From positions 1 to 43,257 of the forward strand of contig JBHJMP010000592.1 of assembly GCA_043381765.1 (NCBI GenBank): DNA of 43,257 bases, written 5' to 3'. This document shows, in pieces, positions 2,403-42,860 of the stretch. Source of the stretch: Collodictyon triciliatum. Its lineage: Eukaryota. Each line of letters begins with the position of its first letter. The first letter of the stretch is position 1. The notes under the pieces are model-generated. The model had not been told where the DNA came from, did no database searches, and saw nothing but the letters and a program-made list of their open reading frames with translations. The translations under genes and the position numbers were made by a program.

Positions 2403-2768
2403 AGAACACGGCGCTGGTGGTTCCGAAACAAAGCGAAGCGAAAACAAGCAAAAGCGAAGCGAAAACAAGCCTAAACAAAACAGAACAAAATGTTATGGCA
2501 AAACAAAAACGATTACAAAAATTGTAAGTTGGTGTGAAAGAACGAAATAGGAAACAAACGAAACAAAAGAACAAAGGTAGACCCGCGGCGCCGGACGCAA
2601 ACCGAGTGCTGCAACGAACCTTCCAGAACACCAGCCAAGCCAAGCCAAGCCAAGTTGATCGATGGTCAGCCCAGAACTGACTCAAGCAAACCCCATCGAC
2701 CCACAGGCCACGAGTCAAGGGCAGGTCGCGGGCCAAAAGAAGAGCAGAAAGTGCCTGGCGAGCAAACA

Positions 2769-5700
2769 ATGCAGCGCGCCTCGTCGAATCCGCTGCAGCC
2801 ACGGACAGAGTTCAGTCCCGCAGGAAGCATTTCAGCCGCTACCTTTCTGATGCTGGCGGATCACTTTGCCACAAGAATCCCCGACGTTGTATGGTCGATC
2901 CGCGGGTTGGTTCGCCTAGACGTGTTCGGCTCAAAGGTATGTCCCATCGCATTTAAGCTGCCATGTGTGTTGAGCAGCATTCTGGACTCTTCAAACCCTC
3001 CATACTCGGTCGCATAGCCGCATATATCGCACATCAGTATAAGTATCTAATGCTGAATATTGTTTCGCTTCTTCGAATGCCAGTTGACAAAGCTCGAACC
3101 ACACATATCTCAACTTCAAAGGCTGCAAGAATTTCGCCTCAGTGGCAAAGAGGTTCGTTTCATTTCAGCTCATCTGTTCTTTTACAAATTCCCGGTTGTC
3201 AGTGCCCTACTCCACCATCGAACATGGCCGACTTCTAGTGAGGCGGTGTAATATTCGTTTAAAAGAACCCAAAACAATATTTTGCTACCCATGAATGGTC
3301 ATACAGATCACAGATATACCTGAAAGCATGACCATTCTCACTCTTCTACACCAGTTGCGATTTGTAGAAAATCAAGTAATTCATTTACCTTTCCTCTACT
3401 TTTTCAGGCATGTGCTGTTTTTGATTTACTATACCAATACGACATTAAGAAAGCGTAATAATAATAGTAATAATAATATGATTAGATATCACACTTCCCA
3501 TTCTCCTTCGGTGTCTTTTCATTACTAACTTCATTACAGATCAGCAACAACTCGGTGAGATTTCCTAACATTACCACATCTAAAGAGAATAACATTTAAA
3601 AACGAAAATTTCGAATGCAGCTGTCTGTATTTCCTTCTTCCATTTTTGAGCTTACTTCTTTGAAGGAACTACGTATGAATGGAAATATGGTAAGGAAACC
3701 GTACCCGAGAATGATTGAGAGTATATTGCTGGAGTGAAATTCACCATGTCAACTGTGTCACATTCCAAAATATATGTCAGGGTGGTAAAATTAACATCCA
3801 TCACATCACTATGGTGCTCCACCTCGGTCGGCTTCGTGTGTTCAAGATCCCTGATTTGCACCCTGACATATCCAGGCTGATTAACTTACTTACTCTGTCT
3901 GTTGAGTGGAACAAGGTTTATCTAGCAACCCTTATCTCCTTGATATATCCACTGAAGTATTGTTTCTTTATGTATTTTAACTTTTGTTTTCCAATCACGT
4001 TATTACATTTCATGTACTTTAGATTGTTGTGTTACCAGATTCTATAAAGTATCTCACCAATTTGGCCGTGTTGGCTGTCCAAAAAAATTATGTGAGACTC
4101 TGAAATCTTGATAGTTTTATGTTTATATGTTTATTAAAAAATTTTAGCCCACAATTGTGAAGCTGTAAATAAAATTTTTTTATTAGATCGAGTTCCTCCC
4201 AGATAGTATATCCCACCTTACAAATCTGCAAAAGCTAGAGCTATGGCAAAACAGGGTAACCCATTTCATCCAAATCATGTTATGAGATTTTGATTCATGT
4301 GACGTTAAATTTTAACTTTATGTATGCTAACTTTGATAACCATCTCGATATTTTGTAAAGTTGAGTCTGCTGCCAGAGAATTTCGGGAATCTAAAAAACC
4401 TGCGGCACCTCGAATTGTGGTATAATCATGTAATGTAGTTGCATCACTTTTCCGTTAATTACCTTCCAAAAATGATTTTTATACACTCTTTGTATTCACT
4501 GGCCATCGTCATATACTCAAACAAATGTAATATCTGCACTTCACAATCTGCAGTTTTCGTATTTGCCGGGCTCTTTCTCCAGACTCACTAAATTAGAAAG
4601 CATATGGCTCTTCCAAAACAAGGTTGTACCCAATTTTTGCCATGAATAGTCTTATCTGATCAATGAGTCAAAAAAATTATCTATTATAACCGATTCAATT
4701 TTAAGTTTTCTGCACTCCCGGATGTTTTAAAGTATATGCCTCGCATCCGCGTATTGTCCCTGGATAAAAACATGGTTGAAATTATCAAAATTCATGTGAA
4801 TACAAAAGTGCATTAAAAGTGTTGATTCGATTATTTTTCTTTCAATTTCAAATAGATTACGTTTCTGTCCGATGTTCTGTTCCAAATGACGCAACTTCAA
4901 CACCTACGCATACAAGAGAACGCGGTAATTTAGCGAGATTTCCTGGCACTACTCATCCACTTCCCTTCGCATATGCCCAAAATGCATGTGAGAATATCTC
5001 AAAGCAAACACTCCATATTGTACTATTTCTAATTCTTGCCGTTACATCCATTCAGCTCAGCAGTATATCCAGCAATATATCAAAACTCCTACGTCTTCAT
5101 GAGTTAAATATAGGCGAGAATAAGGTGGTGTATTTTTTTGGAATTGTAGGTTTTCTTCTACTATCTTTAACCATTATCTTCATAATATTTTTTATTCACA
5201 GTTATCAGACCTTCCCGCTGAGATGAGTCATTTAGAAAACCTCAACAAATTACACCTCCACAGAAACAAAGTATGCCATAAAATTGGCTGTTTAATATAC
5301 ATATATCATTTCTAACATCCTTATCAGTGTATGCTTTTTCATCTTGTATCAATTTTAAATATAGCTTTCAGAGATACCCTCCTGTATTTGGTGTTTGTCT
5401 AAGCTACAGTCACTCAATATCGGCGAAAATCGTGTATGTTTTGGATTAAAAAGCGCATGGATTAAGTTCAAATCATACTCCTTTATTTTTTTTAAAAAAG
5501 TGTAACGTTAAATTATTACATTTACACTACAGGTGTCAGCTATCCCAGATGAGCTCAGTGCACTCACCGACTTGACAAAAATTGATCTGAATCAAAACGA
5601 TGTATTTTTGCTCTCACATCATCCCGCGAACTTGACATTAGATCATAAAAATAGTGCGCAAGTAAGAAATTCATAGAACATATACATATATAAATAGCTT

Positions 5701-8700
5701 TCAGACCTACCTTGCGGATTTGGCTGCCTGCGCGAACTATCAGAGTTGCTTTTGCATGGAAACCAGGTAAATATTGCACGGATGGTAGAATTACATCTGA
5801 AATACATAATTGCTAATGACGACAAAGAAAAGGAATTAATTAGCAATACCAAACGACATAGTATATTAATATTAAGCCAAACTAATTGCACGGGTCAACA
5901 ATAGCTCGATAATAGGACTAAATTTTATTGTCACTTAACCGCTCATTTCTTTTTTAAAAAAACAACATATTAAATATATATTTGTGTAATGATCTATACA
6001 ACAACCCTAGTTAACCCATGTCCCTGAAAGCCTCAGTGTGCTCACTAATTTGAGTTGCCTGTCTTTAAATGACCAAAAGGTTCCTCCAAATTTTATCTTT
6101 ATACTTGCATGAACATCAATGCACATCAAATATCTTTGGCTCCTTGATTGGAATTTTTGAGAATTGACATAATGTTTATGTATAAATATTCGACACACCT
6201 TGTCTTAAAATAGATAGAAGATTTGCCTGAGTGGATATCAAAACTAGCGAAATTAATGGAACTTGATATCAGCAAAACTCTTGTAATCATATATCCTTAC
6301 GTTGTTGATGTTGTTGATCATGTGCTAGAAATTTTATTAAAAATGCATCTAATCGACATAAATCAGATTGAGACAGCAGTCGCTGGCATCACATCCCTGC
6401 CATGCTATGAGAAGAGTCTTGATCTTACTCTTTTAGACTTGACTGAGCCCACAGCTGTGTATTTTAACGGATATGGAATCCAACGGTTCCAAGATATCAA
6501 AGGAAATCTTGATTTGTACAGGATGATAGATTTGTCTGGAAATAGGGTTTTCATCAAATTTTGTATTCTAATCGGTTGAAAAATGAGCTCCTAGCCTAGT
6601 TTGAACCATATCTTTTCGGTGTTTAACTTTCATATGTAGAGCGTGATGAATATATCTGGATGATGAATAATTTTTCTTTTTCAAAAAAAAAAAGCTTTCA
6701 AGCCTCCCTGAAACCTTCAGCTCTCTTACCAATCTCCAATGCCTCTTCTTGGGTTCTCTATCCGGAGGGAACAAGGTGTGCAACAAGTTCTAGATGAGAT
6801 GCCCTAAGTGTATTGCTGAGCACTTTTCTTTCTAATTCATTCAATTTTCCGTTCCTCGGTTATTCTTTTATATTCTACTTTTTGTCTTCAAATTTCGTAA
6901 AATATTGTTGAAAGTCGCTTTCGTTACTAATGCCCATTAACTATTCAAAATCAGTTTTCTGAGGTTCCCTCTGTTTTAAGCTACATGACTCATCTGAAGT
7001 CACTCCGACTAGACCGAAATCCGGTTAGTGTTAACTTGTTTCGTTCATATTTTTAAAAGTAGCGTGTTTATTTCCCCTGCATCTTTTTCGATATCTTTTC
7101 ACAACAGATTTACATGATTCCCCACTGGATCACACTTCTGTCCTTGCTTTATGATTTGTCAGTAGACCAAACTAAGGTAATCAAATTGGCGTCGATGTTG
7201 GGAGACTTTACTTTTCCTTTTACTTTTTCTTTTCTCTTTCTCTTTCTCTTTCTCTTTCTCTTTCTCTTTCTCTTTCTCTTTCTCTTTCTCTTTCTCTTTC
7301 TCTTTCTCTTTCTCTTTCTCTTTCTCTTTCTCTTTCCCTTTCTCTTTCTTTCTCTTTCCCTTTCCCTTTCCCTTTCCCTTTCCCTTTCCAATGATAAGTT
7401 TTAATAATAGGTAACGACCGCACCGATTGGTTTGAGAAAGTTGAAGTGCTTTGAACACTCTACAACACTGCAATCTTTAAATATGGTCCAGCCAAGAGTC
7501 GGATACGAAATGAAAAAAGGGCACACATTTATTGATAGCGTCCTTGGTGATTACGAAAATCTAGAGGAATTATACCTAAACGAAAACAAAGTTTGTTCAA
7601 GCTTTACACCTCTTCAAAAACTCCTTGATAATTTAAGTGGAAAGAGGTGTCAAGATTAACTGCTTATCTAACCTCCAGATCGTTTTACCAATAGATTGAA
7701 TCAATCCCCGAAGCTCTGGGGAAGTTCCGGGATCTTTCGATTCTCGATATATCTCACAATAATGTACGTAGATTTGTAGTTCCAAGATTACATATTTATA
7801 TAGATATTACGTGACAGCTTGCATTTCGGTTTTAATAATGAGTGATTTTGAAAAAAAAAAATTATTTCTAGATTACTAATCTTCCAGAGTGGATTGGAAT
7901 CTTAAAGAATCTGAAGGAACTAAATTTTTCTTTCAATCAAGTAAAAATGGGTTAATTTATTGGTACTACATCATCATAAATAAATTTTTTTAAAAAAAAA
8001 AGGCACAGCGCAAGACATGCATCATCATTTCCTGACCTTTTTAATATAAAATATAGGTTAGAAAAATCCCTGTTTCAGTGGCTAGTCTCCTATGCCTGGA
8101 GGTTTTGAAATACGAAAGAAATCCAATAGAGTATCCACCACAAAACATTTTGTCTCAAGGAACTGGCAAAGTAGTGGAGTTTATGAAATCTGAAATCCAA
8201 GGTACGGAATATTGGTCTCGAACACGAATCATTGTGATTGGACCCCAAGGATGCGGGAAATCTACTTTAGTTCGGTCATTAAGTCAAACAGGCAAATTCC
8301 AGAGCACATGTGACGAGGAGCAAAGTCCTGTCAACAATGGCATAGATATCCAAACAGTCAATTTTTTAGTTCCTGGATTTGAGACACCTGTTCTTGTTTC
8401 ATTTTGGGACTGTAAGGAGCCTGAATTTCAGGTTGCTCATCCATTTTTCTTTTCCAAAAAGGCACTATTTCTTTTAGTGTGGGACTCAACGTTAGGTTTA
8501 TCGAGCAGTCACTTGAAAGAATGGATATCATTGGTTGCATCAGTAGCCCCAAAAGCCGAGATTATAATTGTAGGAACAAAAACGGATAAACTTGAAATGC
8601 CTGACCAAACCTCTGTTACTCTGGTGGCCAATGTTAGGGGATTATTGATTCCGTTCAGAAGTAATATCCAATTTATTGATTGTGTTCTGGTGAGTAATTC

Positions 8701-10850
8701 GACGGGGAAAAATATCCCCAAGCTCAACGAACTGATTAGATCAACGCTTTCAAGGTTGATGAAAAGTCACCGCACGGTCCTAAAGTCAACCAACGTGCTT
8801 AGGGCTATATGCGACAGTGTCGGGAAAAATAGAGAAAATTCCAGCATGACCTATACGGAATTCTGTGATGTGTGTGAAAGCTTGTCCCCTACACTGGAGC
8901 CAGATAGAATATTACCATTTCTCAACGATTGTGGTGTTGTTGTGTGGAGTGAAAACGAACGCTTTAGAGATGTAATAGTTTGTCATCCTCAATACCTCTT
9001 CAAAGCTTTTTTGCAAGTATTTAACTCCTCGCGAAGTCGACACTCTTCAGGGGCATACAAGAAAGAAGACATTTGTCGACAGTTTGATGTGAATTTTCCA
9101 GGTTCTTCGGACGCACTATTGGAAGTTTTTCGGAGCTTCAGACTATCGTTTCAAACAAGGAACCAAATATATGAAGTCTTTCCCTTCATACTGCCTCCTC
9201 GGCATCCCCCGCAGTCAATATGGCCCTCGAAACCTCCCGTTCAATGTCGCTCGTACACAGCAAGCCGCATAGATCTGAATATGTTCCCTCCTGGTCTGTT
9301 CAGCTTTATCATGACTGAAATGCAGACAATATGCGAGCCTGGGGTGAGCGAGGAACACAAGAGATATAGCGATTTTTATAGTCAAAACTGTTTTGTTGGC
9401 AAGGTGGTGGCAAATCCGTTCGACCCCGACAGTCACAACTGCATGTGCCTTGTGGAAAGTTTCCCAAACGATTGTAGACTTTATGTCTCCGTTCGAGTCT
9501 TGGATGATAGCCCGTCTTCATTCCACCAGTTAAAGATGATTCTCGAAGTGCTGGAGTCCTGCCTTCAAATATACAGCGGTGTGAGAATCACAAACAAATC
9601 CATTATCTGCCCCACCTGCCATATAATCAATCCTGATATTCACAAGTGCGGTGCCATTGATTGGGACAAGTTAAATGCTAGTCAAGAAAATGCCGCAAAC
9701 AGTAACGAAAGAAAAGACCAGAGGTACCATAGCGATTACTTATGCAACCTGGGGCATTCGGCGACTCTATCCGAGCTCAAGTACGGGTTCAAAATAGAAT
9801 CGAGAGCTTTGTTTATAGACACAGTGCTTCCCACAGAGAATCTATTTATTCCAGAGCTGTTTCTTTTCGAACAAGAAAATACCTTGAGCATGCATAACAA
9901 CACTCTTTACATGCATTTGCTGTGTGACCATCCAAGCCAACCCCACAAGACCAGCCACATGGGCTACCCGGTAAGCGAGGTTGTGCTGCGAAAAGATACC
10001 TTCGCCTCCACTCTAGTGGAGGTTTTGAAACCCCGGGCAGACATTTCCAAGGAAATCCACAGCTTGAATATGGACAATGTGGGCCAAGTTGTGGCATTTA
10101 TTCTCAAGAAAGCTGTGGGGACTTTCCAGGCAAATGGCGATGACCGATTCCGAAAAATTCTCTCCACATTAGACCCCAGTGAAGGTTGGAGGCTGCATCT
10201 GAAAGAGATTCAGTTTCCCAACACACAAGTCAGATATTTGTGCCAAGAATGCACGAGGCGGTTCCATTCGACGCGTGATGTGCCTATTGCACGCCCCAAT
10301 ATAGGAGGCTATATATTTATTAAACAGATTTCTCCATCGTCCTCTGCTGATGATTGGAGTATGTGCTACTCTTTGCTTTGGAAGGATGCTCGGCTGTTAA
10401 CTCTGTACACTAATAAGTCTTTCAAGGAAAACGACAAATTGTCATTGTCAGAGAACTTTAAGGTGAAAAAAAATGTACCCAATTTCTTTCCTTTGAGCCT
10501 TTATTTTTTTTTCTTCTTCTTTCTCAAAGTCGTGCAACTCCACATATATTTATGTTGATTGTTTTATTTTGGTTTGGTTTTTCCTTTTTTTTTGTTATAA
10601 ATGCAAGGTTTCCTTGTGGTCAGCTGGCGATGATTCGTATGGATTGGTTTTGAAGATTGGACAGAAGGAGTACGCCATGAGGGTGATTGATTCTTTATTT
10701 GTATACCCTCATTTTTTTTTCTATTTTCATCATTTATGATGGCCACTTTTTATATTACAAGTTTCTGATTTGCCCGACACGACACAGGTCGAGACGATTC
10801 AAGAATTCCGAACTTGGATTCATCACCTTTCATCTCTGCAACTCAAATGA
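2769..10850 (+). CDS. Roco-family protein, LRR array - Roc GTPase - COR - Cys/His motifs - PH; 29 exons, about 1556 aa
   Basis: Exon 2769-2936; 69-nt LRR exons starting 3084, 3307, 3486, 3621, 3847, 4023, 4187, 4361, 4554, 4706, 4856, 5056, 5202, 5365, 5533, 5698, 6011, 6214; exons 6367-6546 and 6695-6775; 69-nt exons at 6955 and 7108; exon 7411-7590; 69-nt exons at 7695 and 7872; exons 8057-10462, 10608-10682, 10788-10850. All are AG/GT bounded, phase 0 and stop-free. Motifs: NPIEYPP..I..QG LRR-Roc linker, P-loop GPQGCGKST, HPFFFSKKALFLLVWD, IIVGTKTD, COR (FLNDCGVVVW..VIVCHPQYL, FPPGLFS), PH terminal helix VETIQEFRTWIHHL. Confidence 0.92.
3084..7940 (+). repeat. Array of single-LRR cassette exons (22 x 69 nt, one 81 nt, two 180-nt island exons)
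   Basis: Each 69-nt exon translates to (L/I/F)xxLPxxIxxLxxLxxLxLxxNx, e.g. IEFLPDSISHLTNLQKLELWQNR (4187-4255) and LSLLPENFGNLKNLRHLELWYNH (4361-4429). Every intron falls at the same register, just after N-x. Confidence 0.93.
7231..7389. repeat. (TTTCTC)n / (TTTCCC)n hexanucleotide microsatellite in a Roco intron
   Basis: Directly visible; source of the spurious poly-ER/KE/FL ORFs at 7114-7473. Confidence 0.95.
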
Positions 10851-11328
10851 TGTTTGCAGATTGACACGACCCACGACAGCATGGAAAAAGAAAAGAAAAC
10901 TGCTTTGTGCCCTGTCTGATTGCTGCGCACCGACCCTGAACGACCCGCCACCCTCTCCATCCTCATATATCGCAAATAAACAAAGCCTCCTATCCTCCCG
11001 CCTGCGCCCAATGCCCCAAACCCGCCCTGCCGCATCCTACCGCATGGCATCAGCCGAGCCAACAAAGAGAAGAAGAGAGGAAACGATTGGAGATGCACGC
11101 AAACCCGAAAGAAAAATGAGTGGCAACCAAACCGGCAGCGCGCGCAACGATCCTCCACCCAAAAACGGCGGCTCAGGAGATAACCACAGAAACCCCCCAA
11201 AAACGAAAAACGAAAAACACAAAAACACAAAGAGAGAAGAGAGAGAAAAAGAAAAGGACAGCGAGCCCTAAACAGCGAGTATCCTGCCCACTCCTTCGGA
11301 AGCCTGCGTCACAGCTGAAGGCCGCCGC

Positions 11329-14139
11329 ATGTCTGTGTCTCAGCAGCTTCGCCGCCGCTCTCTTCAGCCGCCGCTTCGCACGCAGGCCTCTGGGTTGAAT
11401 CTGCCGACAGAGTCGCTTCTGCAGGGCGCAGTCATTGGACAGAGCCTGCTCGGGCCGCGCAGAGGGGCAGAAAGCAGCGTCCCGTGCGAGCAGACTGCGG
11501 CTCCACACGCAACCCGCGCCCTTCCGCAAATCCCGCCGGGCACAACAACAGCTTCGCCGCTGCCTTCGTCCGTGAGCGCAGAGCACTTCCGTGTAGACGC
11601 AGACTGCATCTTTCCGGCCATTGCGGCAGACTTTCCCCGCGATGCAAACGCGCTCATCATTCAGGTCTGCGACGAGGCGCGCCGGGTGCGCAAGGACTTT
11701 GTCTGCCCGCGCGACAAGATCCTCTCGTCCATGGCCTACTTTGCAGACTACTTTCAGGATGCTGCGCTCGTCAGCCCGGTTGAGCAAACAGAAATCTCGG
11801 TCCACTGCGACATTCACGTCTTCGAGTGGCTCGTCAACTTCATCATGCGGCCAGAGTCTCCTCCTCTCCTAGGTTTTTCCCCCCTTATTTAATCGCAGTA
11901 TCCCATAGATAAAATATTCACAAAAAGTTACTCATTTGTTTTGTCTTAGCACTTACTACTGCTTCTTTTTTTTTTTTCATCCTTAATTTTTTTACCGAAC
12001 AATTATCACATAAACTATACATTCTATATGATTTTTCGGGCGTAATTTTTGCTACATAATTTTTTATTGAAATATGTGTTTGTATCGTACAGACCCGTCC
12101 AATGTGATGTCCATCATGGTTTCGTCAGATTTTCTGCAGATGAACGATGTAGTTCGAGTCTGTCTCAAATACCTTCGTGAACATCTGAACCATGTCCTTC
12201 GGCTCCCGCTCGACCTCAGTTGTCTTAGTCCTAAGCTCCTCCAACTTCTCAGCAACAAATTCACGATTGACGAATTGGATGGGTATTTTTGAGCTTTCGA
12301 ATACAGAAATCATTTCAAAGAAAAATAAAATCTTTTCACGATTTTTTGCATCGCATCGACAAAACCATATGCATATCTCTACAGCTTTCTATCCATTGAA
12401 TATGCATCGGTTTCTTTATTTAACACTTTTCTTTAATTTGTTTTGTACCTCCGCTTTTCTTTCCAGGATAAAAGACCGTAAAGACCGGTTGCTGAGCAAG
12501 ATGTACATCTGCAAAATTGAATGGCTTTTCCAAACGCCCGACAACACTCTAAACAGATGCAAGCTTTGCAACACCATCTACACAGCTGGTCAATACACTT
12601 GGATGTTGTGTCGAAAGGCAGAGCCTCATGTCGATTTCCATGGAAGTGTTGTTGCAAGGTTCCTTCTTTTCCACTGCTCGAATGCATAACATCTTCACTT
12701 CTTTTTTTCCCCATCATGTATATTTTCATTTATGTTTCCCCAAACAAAACCCCTTCTACAGGACGAAGAGACACAAACTAAATGGAAAATAAATCTAGAT
12801 AGCAATATCCTAACGACGAACCTTTTTTCTTTAAAAAAAAAAAACATCTTGCTCTCCGTGAATTCGGACAGGCATAGCCCAGACGAAAGCTTCGACATGC
12901 AAGACTACATCGCTGATTTTTGCAAAGAGCGCTTGTCTTGGAAAGGAATATTCTGGAGGTTGTGGAGCCTCTCGCAGACGCTCACATGCATCCGGTGCAA
13001 TCGCAAGTTTGTTGGAACTGAATCAAAGCATTGTTTGTCTCATGAATCACCGCCTGAATTTCCGAGTGATGGAGCTAGAGGAAAGTAAGTTTTTCAATAT
13101 CTGTACCATATTGTCAATAATCAATAACTCTGGGAAGCCTTGCAAACAACGTATTTTCCAAATTAATCAAAGATATCCGTGTTGTGGGGGCCTTGCTTTG
13201 CGCCTTGGCACTTCTATTCATCGGCGTGGATGCTGTTCCGAACCGCACATAGTCGACCCAACAAGCAGAGATGAAGAAATCCTACAGAGAATCGAGCGGC
13301 ACGAACAGTACTGCTCTCTTCCTTTCGATGCTTCCCTCGATATAGATGATATCGGAATCGACGATGGAAAAGTTCTTGCGAGGTCTTGCTATCGCTCACT
13401 CATGGAATCAGTTTCGTTTTTTAGAATTTTTTTTCATTTTCTGTATATTCGCCCTATTTTTGACACCATTTCTCACATTACGCTCTATTGTGTGAAGCAT
13501 ATTTTCATGTGGAGTAGAAATAATTTACGTAATGCCCTCAAAACTTTTTGACTATTACATTTTCACTTAGGATGAAGATGAAGAGGAGGACGATGAAATT
13601 GCTCACATGGTAAGCTCCTATCCTCCAAGTAAATCACGTATGACGGGACAGAGACATACAGATTTCATTTACTCAACAAACCCGACATCCACTTCTTACA
13701 TGCAAATATATATATATGTATCCTTTTCTCATGTCCACTGGCTCTAACCTTCCTCACTGGCGGTTACCTGGCTTGCTCCAAGTATCCAAGCAAGTTCAAA
13801 TCTTTTGGTCCAGGCTTTGAGCGCAGACGATACTGGAGTCCCCAGGTGAATGTTGCCTCTCTCAAGTGGCTGAAGATGGACGACCATCGTACAGATGATG
13901 CCGAAAGAATGGAAAGCATCATCCAGCTCATGATGGGGCAGCGCAAGGACATGCGGCGCAGAGCCCCGAAAACATCTCCTTCATCGTCGACTTCGATGCT
14001 CAAGCAAATCACAAACGGCCCTGTTGGCTACTGCATTCCTCCACAACTTACAACAAAGGACAAGCCTGGGAAGGACAGGCGACCAGATGTTGCGCGTAGA
14101 AGCCCAGCGGTAAGCACTCATCACTACGATTATCACTAG
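11329..14139 (+). CDS. SANBR: SANT and BTB domain regulator (SANBR/KIAA1841) homolog; 7 exons: 11329-11872, 12093-12282, 12467-12658, 12872-13084, 13173-13410, 13571-13609, 13783-14139
   Basis: IIQVCDEARRVRKDFVCPRDKILSSMAYFADY..ISVHCDIHVFEWL, NVMSIMVSSDFLQM, KDRKDRLLSKM, SWKGIFWRLW..LTCIRC, YPCCGGLALR and DDHRTDDAERM match the recognisable KIAA1841 family blocks in order. Splice phases are consistent. Confidence 0.9.

Positions 14140-18695: not shown

Positions 18696-18790
<95 letters not shown>
18696..18790. repeat. Poly-A homopolymer tract
   Basis: About 95 consecutive A between TTLL and the Rab 3' end. Confidence 0.95.
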
Positions 18791-22218: not shown

Positions 22219-26244
<4,026 letters not shown>

Positions 26245-41511: not shown

Positions 41512-41610
<99 letters not shown>

Positions 41611-41957
41611 TTTGTGCTATGTTACGTGTATCAAAATGCACAGGATGAACCTTAACTTAAATATCCCTATGTTACTTGGTTGATCAAAGGTCGTCTTCTG
41701 TATTTTGGGCACCGATATGACGAAACATTTTGAACATATGGGGAAGTTGAAGAACATCCTGGATACTGTTGGATTCAACAGAGAAAAGTTTGTTCACAAA
41801 CTGCAAACACTTCTTTCATTCTTTTTTTCTTTTTCATTTTTTTCCTTTTTTTCTTTTTTTTTTTTTTTCTTTTTTTCTTTTTTTCTTTTTTTTCTTTTTT
41901 CTTTTTTTCTTTTTTTCTTTTTTTCTTTTTTTTCTTTTTTTCTTTTTTTCTTTTTTT

Positions 41958-42040
<83 letters not shown>

Positions 42041-42860
42041 CTTTTTTTCTTTTTTTTCTTTTTTTCTTTTTCTTTTTCTTTTTCTCCAATCTGAATGCTA
42101 TTTTATCGTTTGGACACTTCTATTCCATGCAAGAAAAAAAAACCCTAAAAAAAAAAACTCATAGATTAGATGACCGCATATTCTTGGGCTCTTTGATTGT
42201 TCATTTGGCTGATATCGGCAACGTTATTCGCCCTTTTGTAATTTCTCAAAAATGGGGTTTGCGCGTTGTGGCCGAATTTCTCATCCAGGTTTGATGCGCA
42301 TAAAATACTATGGAAATCATAAATGTATATTAGCTCAATCATGCATTTCGTAGCATAAAATTAATAACAGCTGTAATCATCACGTGTAATAGGGAGATCA
42401 AGAGAGAGACCAGAGCATGCAAATATCTCCGTTCATGGATAGGTTCGACATCGATGCCGCAAAAATGTCACTGAACTTTATCACGTTTGTTGTTAGTCCC
42501 TTCATGGATGTTCTTGCACGAGTGGTTCCAGAGTATATAGGTTGGTTCCCATTACAATACCCTTCTCACTTTCTCGTATTTTCATGTCTCCTTTTTTTTT
42601 CTAATTGCTCTTATAAATTGTCACTTTTTGTATTCTTTCCTTCTATTCTTCTTTTTATTGTTCATTTTTTTATCTTTATTTAGAACCAATAGAGCACCTA
42701 AAGAATAACGCAGAGAATTGGAGGAAGCTTCAGGCGGATGGGAAGTTCTTATCTCCTCTATATTTTCCAGTGAGTAATGAAAAATATATGTGAATGCCTT
42801 CTTTTTTTTTCGGTTCATTTTCCAAAGAACATGGCTTTGTATGGAACTGTAGGAACATGA
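37765..42860 (+). CDS. Class I cyclic nucleotide phosphodiesterase with an N-terminal degenerate receiver (REC) domain, RegA/PDE8-like architecture; many exons, last exon tentative
   Basis: NPYHNFQ|HAVDV, AAICHDLDHPGVNN, LYNDQ|SILENHH, LGTDM, HLADIGN, W.LRV..EFLIQ|GD, PFMDR. N-terminal IMAVILWE..DSLTLIRTIRS..LPFIVIL..VEDILIEPLNPKMLKVAV follows the receiver fold pattern. Confidence 0.92.
38312..38411. other. Assembly gap (100 N) inside a PDE intron
   Basis: Run of n flanked by poly-T and a minisatellite. Confidence 1.
38412..38511. repeat. 11-bp minisatellite (TCTTATTCTTT)n, intronic
   Basis: Directly visible tandem units. Confidence 0.92.
41512..41613. repeat. (TTTA)n microsatellite, intronic
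   Basis: Directly visible. Confidence 0.95.
41812..42085. repeat. T-rich low-complexity / poly-T tract, intronic
   Basis: Directly visible; source of poly-F/poly-K artefact ORFs. Confidence 0.95.

Follow-up and report, generated by a model that had tools for sequence, protein, structure and literature searches.

We wanted to establish whether a Roco gene near the start of contig JBHJMP010000592.1 of Collodictyon triciliatum (GenBank assembly GCA_043381765.1; positions 1 to 43,257 of the forward strand, the whole of which is referred to here as the window), in which a long series of leucine-rich repeats (LRRs) is encoded with one exon per repeat, serves to produce variable receptors or has a fixed content. 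A sequence-only reading of the window had proposed the former, i.e. a combinatorial, immune-like repertoire of LRRs. The evidence presented below makes it probable that the array is an old and frozen one, residing in an ordinary, expressed gene for an intracellular Roco GTPase, and that it does not serve to produce variable receptors. The complete model of the gene has 29 exons (Table 1), which encode a protein of ~1556 amino acids with ~27 LRR units and the layout LRR–Roc–COR–Cys/His module–PH. Roco genes with one exon per LRR are a known kind of gene, and what is new here is the lineage in which this one occurs and the register of its exons.

The plus strand between positions 2500 and 8400 was scanned for modules of the form AG-[69 nt, open in frame 0]-GT/GC, which returned 31 modules, 22 of them encoding an LRR and 9 representing non-LRR chance frames. 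Each of the 22 LRR exons is exactly 69 nt long and encodes one 23-residue LRR, and all are bounded by AG and GT, lie in phase 0, and share a common register, with the exon boundary after the N-x of the consensus (L/I)(S/T)x(L/I)PxxIxxLxxLxxLxLxxNx. The variants of the xLxLxxN segment quoted in the sequence-only reading (ELRMNGN, TLSVEWN, KLELWQN, HLELWYN, SIWLFQN, KLHLHRN, and ELLLHGN) were all located in the array. Three further exons of the LRR region are irregular, two of 180 nt without internal introns and one of 81 nt, and they share the end register (after N-x) and the phase of the array; all 25 LRR-region exons (exons 2–26) are therefore phase 0-0. The introns of the gene are 66–244 nt long, the acceptors of exons 2–27 are all AG, the donors of exons 2–26 are GT, and exon 1 has a GT donor at 2937–2938. 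Spliced from 2769 to 10462, the model yields an open product of 1511 amino acids, in which the array leads into a single Roc-COR exon of 2406 nt that itself contains no intron. The putative placement of the two 3′ exons (exons 28 and 29) rests on by-eye collinearity with relatives and not on RNA. The regularity of the 69-nt exons is far beyond chance and, because the 22 exons are equal in length and in phase 0, any subset of them could be skipped in frame. The description of the exons and the frame neutrality of their skipping, both of which the sequence-only reading had put forward, are thus confirmed by the module scan, by nine introns seen in transcript-type contigs, and by a gap-free protein alignment (see below).

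The 22 LRR exons are highly diverged from each other. Their pairwise nucleotide identity has a mean of 0.41 and a maximum of 0.58, adjacent exons are no more similar than distant ones (0.41), and identity at third codon positions is 0.274 compared with 0.253 expected by composition, i.e. these positions are saturated. Further, a blastn comparison of positions 2701–8200 with themselves gave no nonself high-scoring segment pairs (HSPs) at E ≤ 1e-3, and the introns share no remaining similarity to each other by the same method. The saturated third positions, together with the absence of self-HSPs, indicate that there have been no recent exon duplications. The array is old, as had been suggested from the divergence of its exons. 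A profile hidden Markov model (HMM) built from the 22 repeats and searched in all six frames of the window recovered only the annotated plus-strand exons; the introns, the minus strand, and the remaining sequence gave nothing better than an independent E-value (i-E) of 0.2. In the window, this search revealed neither intronic noncoding or reverse LRR copies of the Ectocarpus type nor, on either strand, a silent bank of donor LRR cassettes of the kind found with variable lymphocyte receptors (VLRs). Of the genome-wide search for 69-nt LRR modules that the sequence-only reading had recommended, the part that covers the window thus gave none beyond the annotated exons.

An exhaustive search with the Roc-COR exon as the query returned 3400 proteins at E ≤ 1e-3. 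The 10 best matches, and 16 of the 20 best cluster representatives, came from the EukProt transcriptome of Diphylleia rotans, and the other four of the best 20 were two COR proteins from metagenome-assembled genomes of Acidobacteria, one Tieghemostelium Roco protein, and one Logan protein. A separate homologue search with the same query gave just two weak matches (E ~1e-7), and scans of metagenome contigs with a single-protein query or an alignment query found no relative. In these sequence comparisons, the freshwater flagellate D. rotans is the closest sampled relative for this gene. The best two relatives, P0003/P0153 and P0004, are 41–43% identical to the window protein over the whole of exon 27 and fall into the same length class (1554 and 1653 amino acids). 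Maximum-likelihood analysis of the Roc-COR part groups P0153 with P0004 (96/93) and recovers the window gene as the sister of this pair (90/82), at a path length of ~1.1 changes per site. This topology places the duplication that gave rise to P0153 and P0004 on the D. rotans side.

We noted that, when the spliced window protein was aligned with P0004 and P0153 by MAFFT, the 653-residue LRR region contained no gap columns at all, including at both 60-residue irregular islands and the 27-residue unit. The number, order, and length of the LRR units are therefore identical in the window gene and its two D. rotans co-orthologues. Identity in the LRR region (0.438 with P0004 and 0.417 with P0153) is similar to that in the Roc-COR and C-terminal part (0.406 and 0.423, respectively), which indicates that the LRR region is no less conserved than the enzymatic core. 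Repeats of the same rank are 0.453 (P0004) and 0.419 (P0153) identical, compared with 0.275 and 0.272 for repeats of other ranks. We then considered separately the β-face x positions, i.e. the exposed positions of LxxLxLxxNx (repeat positions 15, 16, 18, 20, 21, and 23), where same-rank identity was 0.432 (P0004) and 0.379 (P0153) and other-rank identity was 0.103 and 0.104. At the other variable positions, same-rank identity was 0.278 (P0004) and 0.250 (P0153). In a permutation of ranks against P0004, none of 10000 permutations reached the observed same-rank β-face value. Expressed as counts, β-face x positions are conserved at 57 of 132 sites and other x positions at 49 of 176 in the comparison with P0004 (Fisher p = 0.005), and at 50 of 132 and 44 of 176, respectively, in that with P0153 (p = 0.018). 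Judged by these protein alignments, the β-face residues differ between repeats yet are fixed for each repeat across species. The sequence-only reading was thus right that the exposed positions differ from exon to exon, but a conserved framework with differing x positions is the definition of an LRR and not evidence that it is diversifying. That reading had further held that a single-copy gene with an unchanged exon order in relatives and purifying selection at the exposed positions would mark the array as a relic of ancient duplication. At the protein level this is largely what we find, with identical unit order and number in the relatives and, by a conservation proxy, conserved exposed positions, except that the gene belongs to a family with multiple paralogues.

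A separate clade of this family in D. rotans (P0013, P0164, P0018, and P0020) has LRR-Roc-COR fused to STAND-type modules, namely DUF4062 in three of the four proteins (not P0013), AAA_16 in three of the four (not P0020), and an NPHP3_N-like module in P0018 alone. By its domain content, this clade of Roco-STAND fusions is more reminiscent of immune proteins than is the clade to which the window gene belongs.

Evidence for splicing was sought in contigs of sequencing run X3, the RNA type of which is a guess from its label “RNA?”, that matched the window at an identity of at least 99%; the comparison covered positions 2700–7200, which hold 22 introns. X3 contigs contained GT..AG joints exactly at introns 1, 2, 5, 6, 8, 9, 13, 14, and 16, i.e. 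at 9 of the 22 introns, and all nine joints link consecutive exons. No exon-skipping joint was seen among these nine, assembled contigs being prone to drop rare variants. X3 also has unspliced contigs across four exon-intron borders and thus represents a mix of spliced and unspliced molecules. Nothing from runs X5 or X1 matched this stretch. The sequencing runs that matched the array region did so with shares of 0.10 or less and were freshwater and subsurface metagenomes and two small coded runs, with no run annotated as RNA among them. The strain differences in X3 and X4 contigs were all noncoding (six of six, in untranslated regions or introns), for which the chance is 0.046 if differences are spread uniformly over 2700–7200 and not just over the bases that contigs cover; we take this as a weak hint of additional support for constraint.

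Further, we compared isoforms of this Roco family in the D. rotans transcriptome, which is limited evidence, as transcriptome assemblies resolve isoforms poorly. Among 14 isoform pairs from 10 Trinity genes, none differed by an internal multiple of 23 residues in the LRR domain. The differences consisted of 5′ truncations, alternative C-terminal tails, a 6-residue low-complexity insertion or deletion, and one 49-residue in-frame insertion. The alternative tails would fit retention of introns within the PH domain. In P0007/P0155, P0008/P0156, and P0010/P0158, the alternative tails start inside the PH domain and, by eye, at or beside the positions of introns 27 and 28 of the window gene, which suggests both that introns are retained and that the intron positions in the PH domain are conserved across paralogues.

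The domains of the encoded protein identify it as a member of the ROCO family, as Roc and an adjoining COR are both present. In Pfam, Roc (PF08477, 1.3e-12) spans residues 57–177 of exon 27 and COR-A (PF16095, 1.8e-11) follows directly C-terminal to it at residues 257–369, so that Roc-COR does occupy a single 2406-nt exon, as had been read from the sequence. An AlphaFold model of exon 27, made with 10 relatives, had a predicted local distance difference test score (pLDDT) of 79.7 and a predicted template modeling score (pTM) of 0.77. Foldseek matched it to LRRK1 (8e05_A, 2.3e-23), the Chlorobium tepidum Roco protein (6hlu_A, 1.5e-19), the RocCOR tandem (3dpu_A, 4.1e-18), COR (3dpt_B, 2.2e-10), and also LRRK2, with 14–19% identity between exon 27 and the matched solved chains. 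The P-loop (GPQGCGKS) and the G4 motif (TKTD) of Roc are intact. Switch II/G3 (positions 8399–8425, exon 27 residues ~115–123) is degenerate and reads WDC-KEPEF, compared with WDxGG (DxxG) in 9 of the 10 aligned D. rotans relatives; the change comprises the loss of the DxxG glycine and a one-residue deletion. DxxG is a feature of active GTPases and is not needed for membership of the ROCO family, and the window Roc may hydrolyse GTP abnormally or not at all.

Between COR and PH lies a family-specific Cys/His module (~9350–10300, exon 27 residues ~430–750), for which no Pfam match was found and which was modelled mostly at a pLDDT of 70–90. Its residues C518-P-x-C521, C563, C623, H630, and C729-x-x-C732 are invariant in all 11 aligned members, and the module may bind zinc. 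The C-terminal PH domain was present in all five relatives scanned with Pfam. The window Roco protein has no kinase domain and, by eye, no apparent signal peptide or membrane segment, and we infer that it is an intracellular signalling GTPase.

We next compared the array with known systems of this kind. The brown-algal LRR-ROCO genes of Ectocarpus and Saccharina are reported to have exons of 72 nt in phase 2, each encoding the 24 residues GxxPxxLxxxxxLxxLxLxxNxLx (Zambounis et al. 2012, PMC3341825; Teng et al. 2024, PMC11378527), in arrays with recent local duplications, weakly conserved exon order, positive selection at β-face sites, and splice variants (PMC3341825; PMC11378527). The Ectocarpus introns are described as interspersed with noncoding or reverse LRR copies (PMC3341825). 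The two systems share an LRR-Roc-COR protein without a kinase, one LRR per exon, and long arrays of equal-length, frame-neutral exons, and the sequence-only reading was justified in pointing to the brown-algal genes as the published parallel (PMC3341825; PMC11378527). They differ in that the window exons have 69 nt and 23 residues, lie in phase 0, and end after N-x, two residues before the point at which the algal exons end, after NxLx; in that recent duplicates, an unconserved exon order, and intronic or reverse copies were not found here; and in that the window protein has a C-terminal PH domain. The rank-wise conservation of the β-face (by the proxy used) is also the opposite of the diversifying pattern described for the algal genes (PMC11378527). 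The differences in exon length, phase, and register make an origin independent of the brown-algal array likely. A brown-algal origin of the window sequence was considered and rejected, as its closest relatives are those of D. rotans and as exon length and phase differ.

The LRR genes of Tetrahymena are described as having exons of exactly 90 bp in phase 2 that number tens of thousands and are young, species-specific, and fast expanding (Xiong et al. 2019, PMC6564038). They are likewise protist LRR genes with exons of exactly equal length and uniform intron phase, but they are not Roco genes, and the window holds one single, old, conserved array. The gonadotropin receptors have similar-sized, in-phase exons in phase 2 with one LRR each (Koo et al. 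1991, as cited in PMC11378527). These exons are interpreted as duplicates of a single prototype exon, and the gene that holds them does not encode a variable receptor (PMC11378527). The receptors differ from the window protein in that their LRRs form the ectodomain of an animal G protein-coupled receptor and are far fewer. When the literature was searched for LRR exons of 69 bp, just the Ectocarpus paper was returned. In a separate search, none of the 10 papers listed out of 74 joins ROCO with Diphyllatea or CRuMs terms. The solved Roco proteins (C. tepidum LRR-Roc-COR 6hlu and 3dpu, LRRK1, and LRRK2) share with the window protein the Roc-COR tandem and LRRs located N-terminal to Roc; the window protein differs from them in the absence of a kinase, the additional Cys/His module and PH domain after COR, and the degenerate DxxG. 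The VLRs of lampreys also use LRR modules as building blocks, and their assembly depends on somatic gene conversion and on silent donor cassettes arrayed beside the gene. In contrast, there is no spare cassette in the window, and its array is germline-fixed across species.

Could the symmetric 69-nt exons nevertheless generate a variable LRR repertoire against pathogens or prey, by exon skipping, swapping between paralogues, or somatic rearrangement? The phase 0-0 layout of exons 2–26, 22 of them equal in length, would permit in-frame skipping, the Roco family is expanded in D. rotans (as seen from the 16 of the 20 best representatives), LRR spans vary among its paralogues, and a separate clade carries DUF4062 and AAA_16 STAND-like modules reminiscent of immune NTPases. 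A precedent is also described for Ectocarpus and Saccharina (PMC3341825; PMC11378527). We nonetheless regard this as very improbable, and here the sequence-only reading is not supported: three genes that lie ~1.1 substitutions per site apart agree fully in the number, order, and length of their repeats; the β-face residues are preserved at each rank, to a greater extent than those at the other variable positions; recent duplicates, as well as spare, intronic, or reverse-strand cassettes, are absent from the window; and neither the nine X3 joints, which are all consecutive, nor the 14 isoform pairs reveal skipping of an LRR unit. A more modest proposal is conditional skipping of a single LRR exon or a small number of them, in a limited and regulated manner that would tune the length of the solenoid and imply neither a repertoire nor an immune role. 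Skipping of LRR exons occurs in animal NLR genes. The frame-neutral exons lend themselves to this, and the 9 of 22 introns (2700–7200) seen in RNA-type contigs, which drop rare variants, leave room for it; such variants are also described for brown-algal ROCOs (PMC11378527). On the other side stand the absence of a skipping joint among the nine, the absence of any LRR-unit difference among the 14 D. rotans isoform pairs, and the individual conservation of every repeat, which argues that each one is needed, so that we consider this explanation unlikely. That regulated skipping of single exons in this Diphylleia-related lineage, in spite of the evolutionary stasis of the array, yields a set of Roco isoforms with shortened or re-registered solenoids, and would thus be a second, independent case beside the brown-algal proposal, seems to us distinctly improbable.

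A different kind of explanation concerns the origin of the layout, namely that the LRR array came first and that each repeat then acquired its intron separately, at one favoured position. The introns are without mutual similarity, so their common descent is not directly demonstrable, and the two 180-nt irregular units do lack internal introns. However, this scenario would need ~25 separate intron gains, all at one codon boundary and in one phase, where duplication of a single exon-intron unit would account for equal length, phase, and register at a stroke, and the 2406-nt Roc-COR exon has remained intron-free; we find it scarcely credible.

We therefore return to the old, frozen array as the preferred explanation. 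The 69-nt phase-0 layout would have arisen by ancient tandem duplication of one exon-plus-intron unit, since when the array would have been frozen, with each repeat holding a fixed identity of its own and the residues of the concave face presumably under purifying constraint. The LRR solenoid would then most likely offer one conserved binding surface, which may be turned towards a conserved partner or towards Roc-COR of the same protein. In solved Roco/LRRK structures, the LRR folds back against Roc-COR, and such packing would also explain the conserved concave face. The PH domain, going by its identity, probably brings the protein to membranes.

Several points weigh against this reading. The RNA evidence is shallow, as it comes from the assembled contigs of a single small run, which cover 9 of 22 introns alongside unspliced contigs. 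Selection is judged by a proxy of protein conservation in place of the ratio of nonsynonymous to synonymous substitution rates (dN/dS), the relatives being available as proteins, and the conservation demonstrated in these sequences is that of repeat order in proteins and not of the introns themselves. Further, D. rotans has an expanded Roco family, between the paralogues of which the HMM-detected LRR span varies from ~65 to ~940 residues, which implies that units were gained or lost in the deeper history of the family. The missing DxxG glycine renders normal GTPase cycling uncertain, and the partner of the conserved LRR surface is hypothetical.

A gene that appears ready for shuffling, with 22 equal and symmetric one-repeat exons, has thus kept every repeat across a deep divergence and represents a counter-example: a combinatorial receptor should not be inferred from exon symmetry alone. 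With this gene, exon-per-LRR arrays extend to a third protist lineage besides the brown algae and Tetrahymena, and the differences in length, phase, and register among these lineages point to repeated independent origin by exon duplication. Further, a Roco subfamily with the layout LRR–Roc–COR–Cys/His–PH is documented in a poorly studied, deep-branching group.

Table 1. Exons of the Roco gene and the microsatellite in its intron 23. The 69-nt LRR exons were assigned by module scan, exon comparison, and repeat HMM, and by alignment of the spliced protein to P0004 and P0153; X3 denotes splice joints in contigs of that run.
Feature	Position	Strand	Description and evidence
Exon 1	2769..2936	+	168 nt, ATG at 2769; N-terminal cap and first, irregular LRR; joint 2936>3084 in X3 contig; aligns to P0004 and P0153 N termini
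Exon 2	3084..3152	+	69-nt LRR; X3 joints on both sides
Exon 3	3307..3375	+	69-nt LRR; X3 upstream joint
Exon 4	3486..3554	+	69-nt LRR; scan, HMM, alignment
Exon 5	3621..3689	+	69-nt LRR; X3 downstream joint
Exon 6	3847..3915	+	69-nt LRR; X3 joints on both sides
Exon 7	4023..4091	+	69-nt LRR; X3 upstream joint
Exon 8	4187..4255	+	69-nt LRR; X3 downstream joint
Exon 9	4361..4429	+	69-nt LRR; X3 joints on both sides
Exon 10	4554..4622	+	69-nt LRR; X3 upstream joint
Exon 11	4706..4774	+	69-nt LRR; scan, HMM, alignment
Exon 12	4856..4924	+	69-nt LRR; scan, HMM, alignment
Exon 13	5056..5124	+	69-nt LRR; X3 downstream joint
Exon 14	5202..5270	+	69-nt LRR; X3 joints on both sides
Exon 15	5365..5433	+	69-nt LRR; X3 upstream joint
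Exon 16	5533..5601	+	69-nt LRR; X3 downstream joint
Exon 17	5698..5766	+	69-nt LRR; X3 upstream joint
Exon 18	6011..6079	+	69-nt LRR; scan, HMM, alignment
Exon 19	6214..6282	+	69-nt LRR; scan, HMM, alignment
Exon 20	6367..6546	+	180 nt, 60 residues; irregular LRR island with GITSLPCY; boundaries fixed by gap-free alignment to P0004 and P0153
Exon 21	6695..6775	+	81 nt, 27 residues; LRR with 4-residue insertion (LGSLSGGNK); HMM i-E 7.5e-05
Exon 22	6955..7023	+	69-nt LRR; scan, HMM, alignment
Exon 23	7108..7176	+	69-nt LRR; scan, HMM, alignment
(TTTCTC)n microsatellite	7226..7388	.	(TTTCTC)27; within intron 23, outside the coding array
Exon 24	7411..7590	+	180 nt, 60 residues; second irregular LRR island; alignment
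Exon 25	7695..7763	+	69-nt LRR; scan, HMM, alignment
Exon 26	7872..7940	+	69-nt LRR; scan, HMM, alignment
Exon 27	8057..10462	+	2406 nt, 802 residues; last LRR, Roc GTPase, COR, Cys/His-rich module, first part of PH; Pfam, model, and fold matches
Exon 28	10608..10682	+	75 nt; middle of PH (putative); by-eye collinear with P0153 C terminus
Exon 29	10788..10850	+	60 nt and stop; C-terminal PH helix (putative); by-eye collinear with P0153

As for the rest of the window, the next gene downstream lies on the same strand (11272–11892 (+) and 12071–12289 (+)) and has a SANBR-type BTB domain (PF11822, 6e-16). When 10 other long open reading frames of the window were searched against Pfam, a fragment of a 3′5′-cyclic nucleotide phosphodiesterase (41734–42294 (+); PF00233, 2.5e-07) was the sole match, and it adjoins a T-rich run of 262 nt at 41822–42083. 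No match was obtained when the window was scanned with Rfam and for tRNAs. In addition to the (TTTCTC)27 tract of intron 23, we note that the window contains other long perfect or near-perfect simple repeats, namely A95 at 18696–18790, (ATA)33 at 23545–23645, and (TTAT)25 at 41512–41613.

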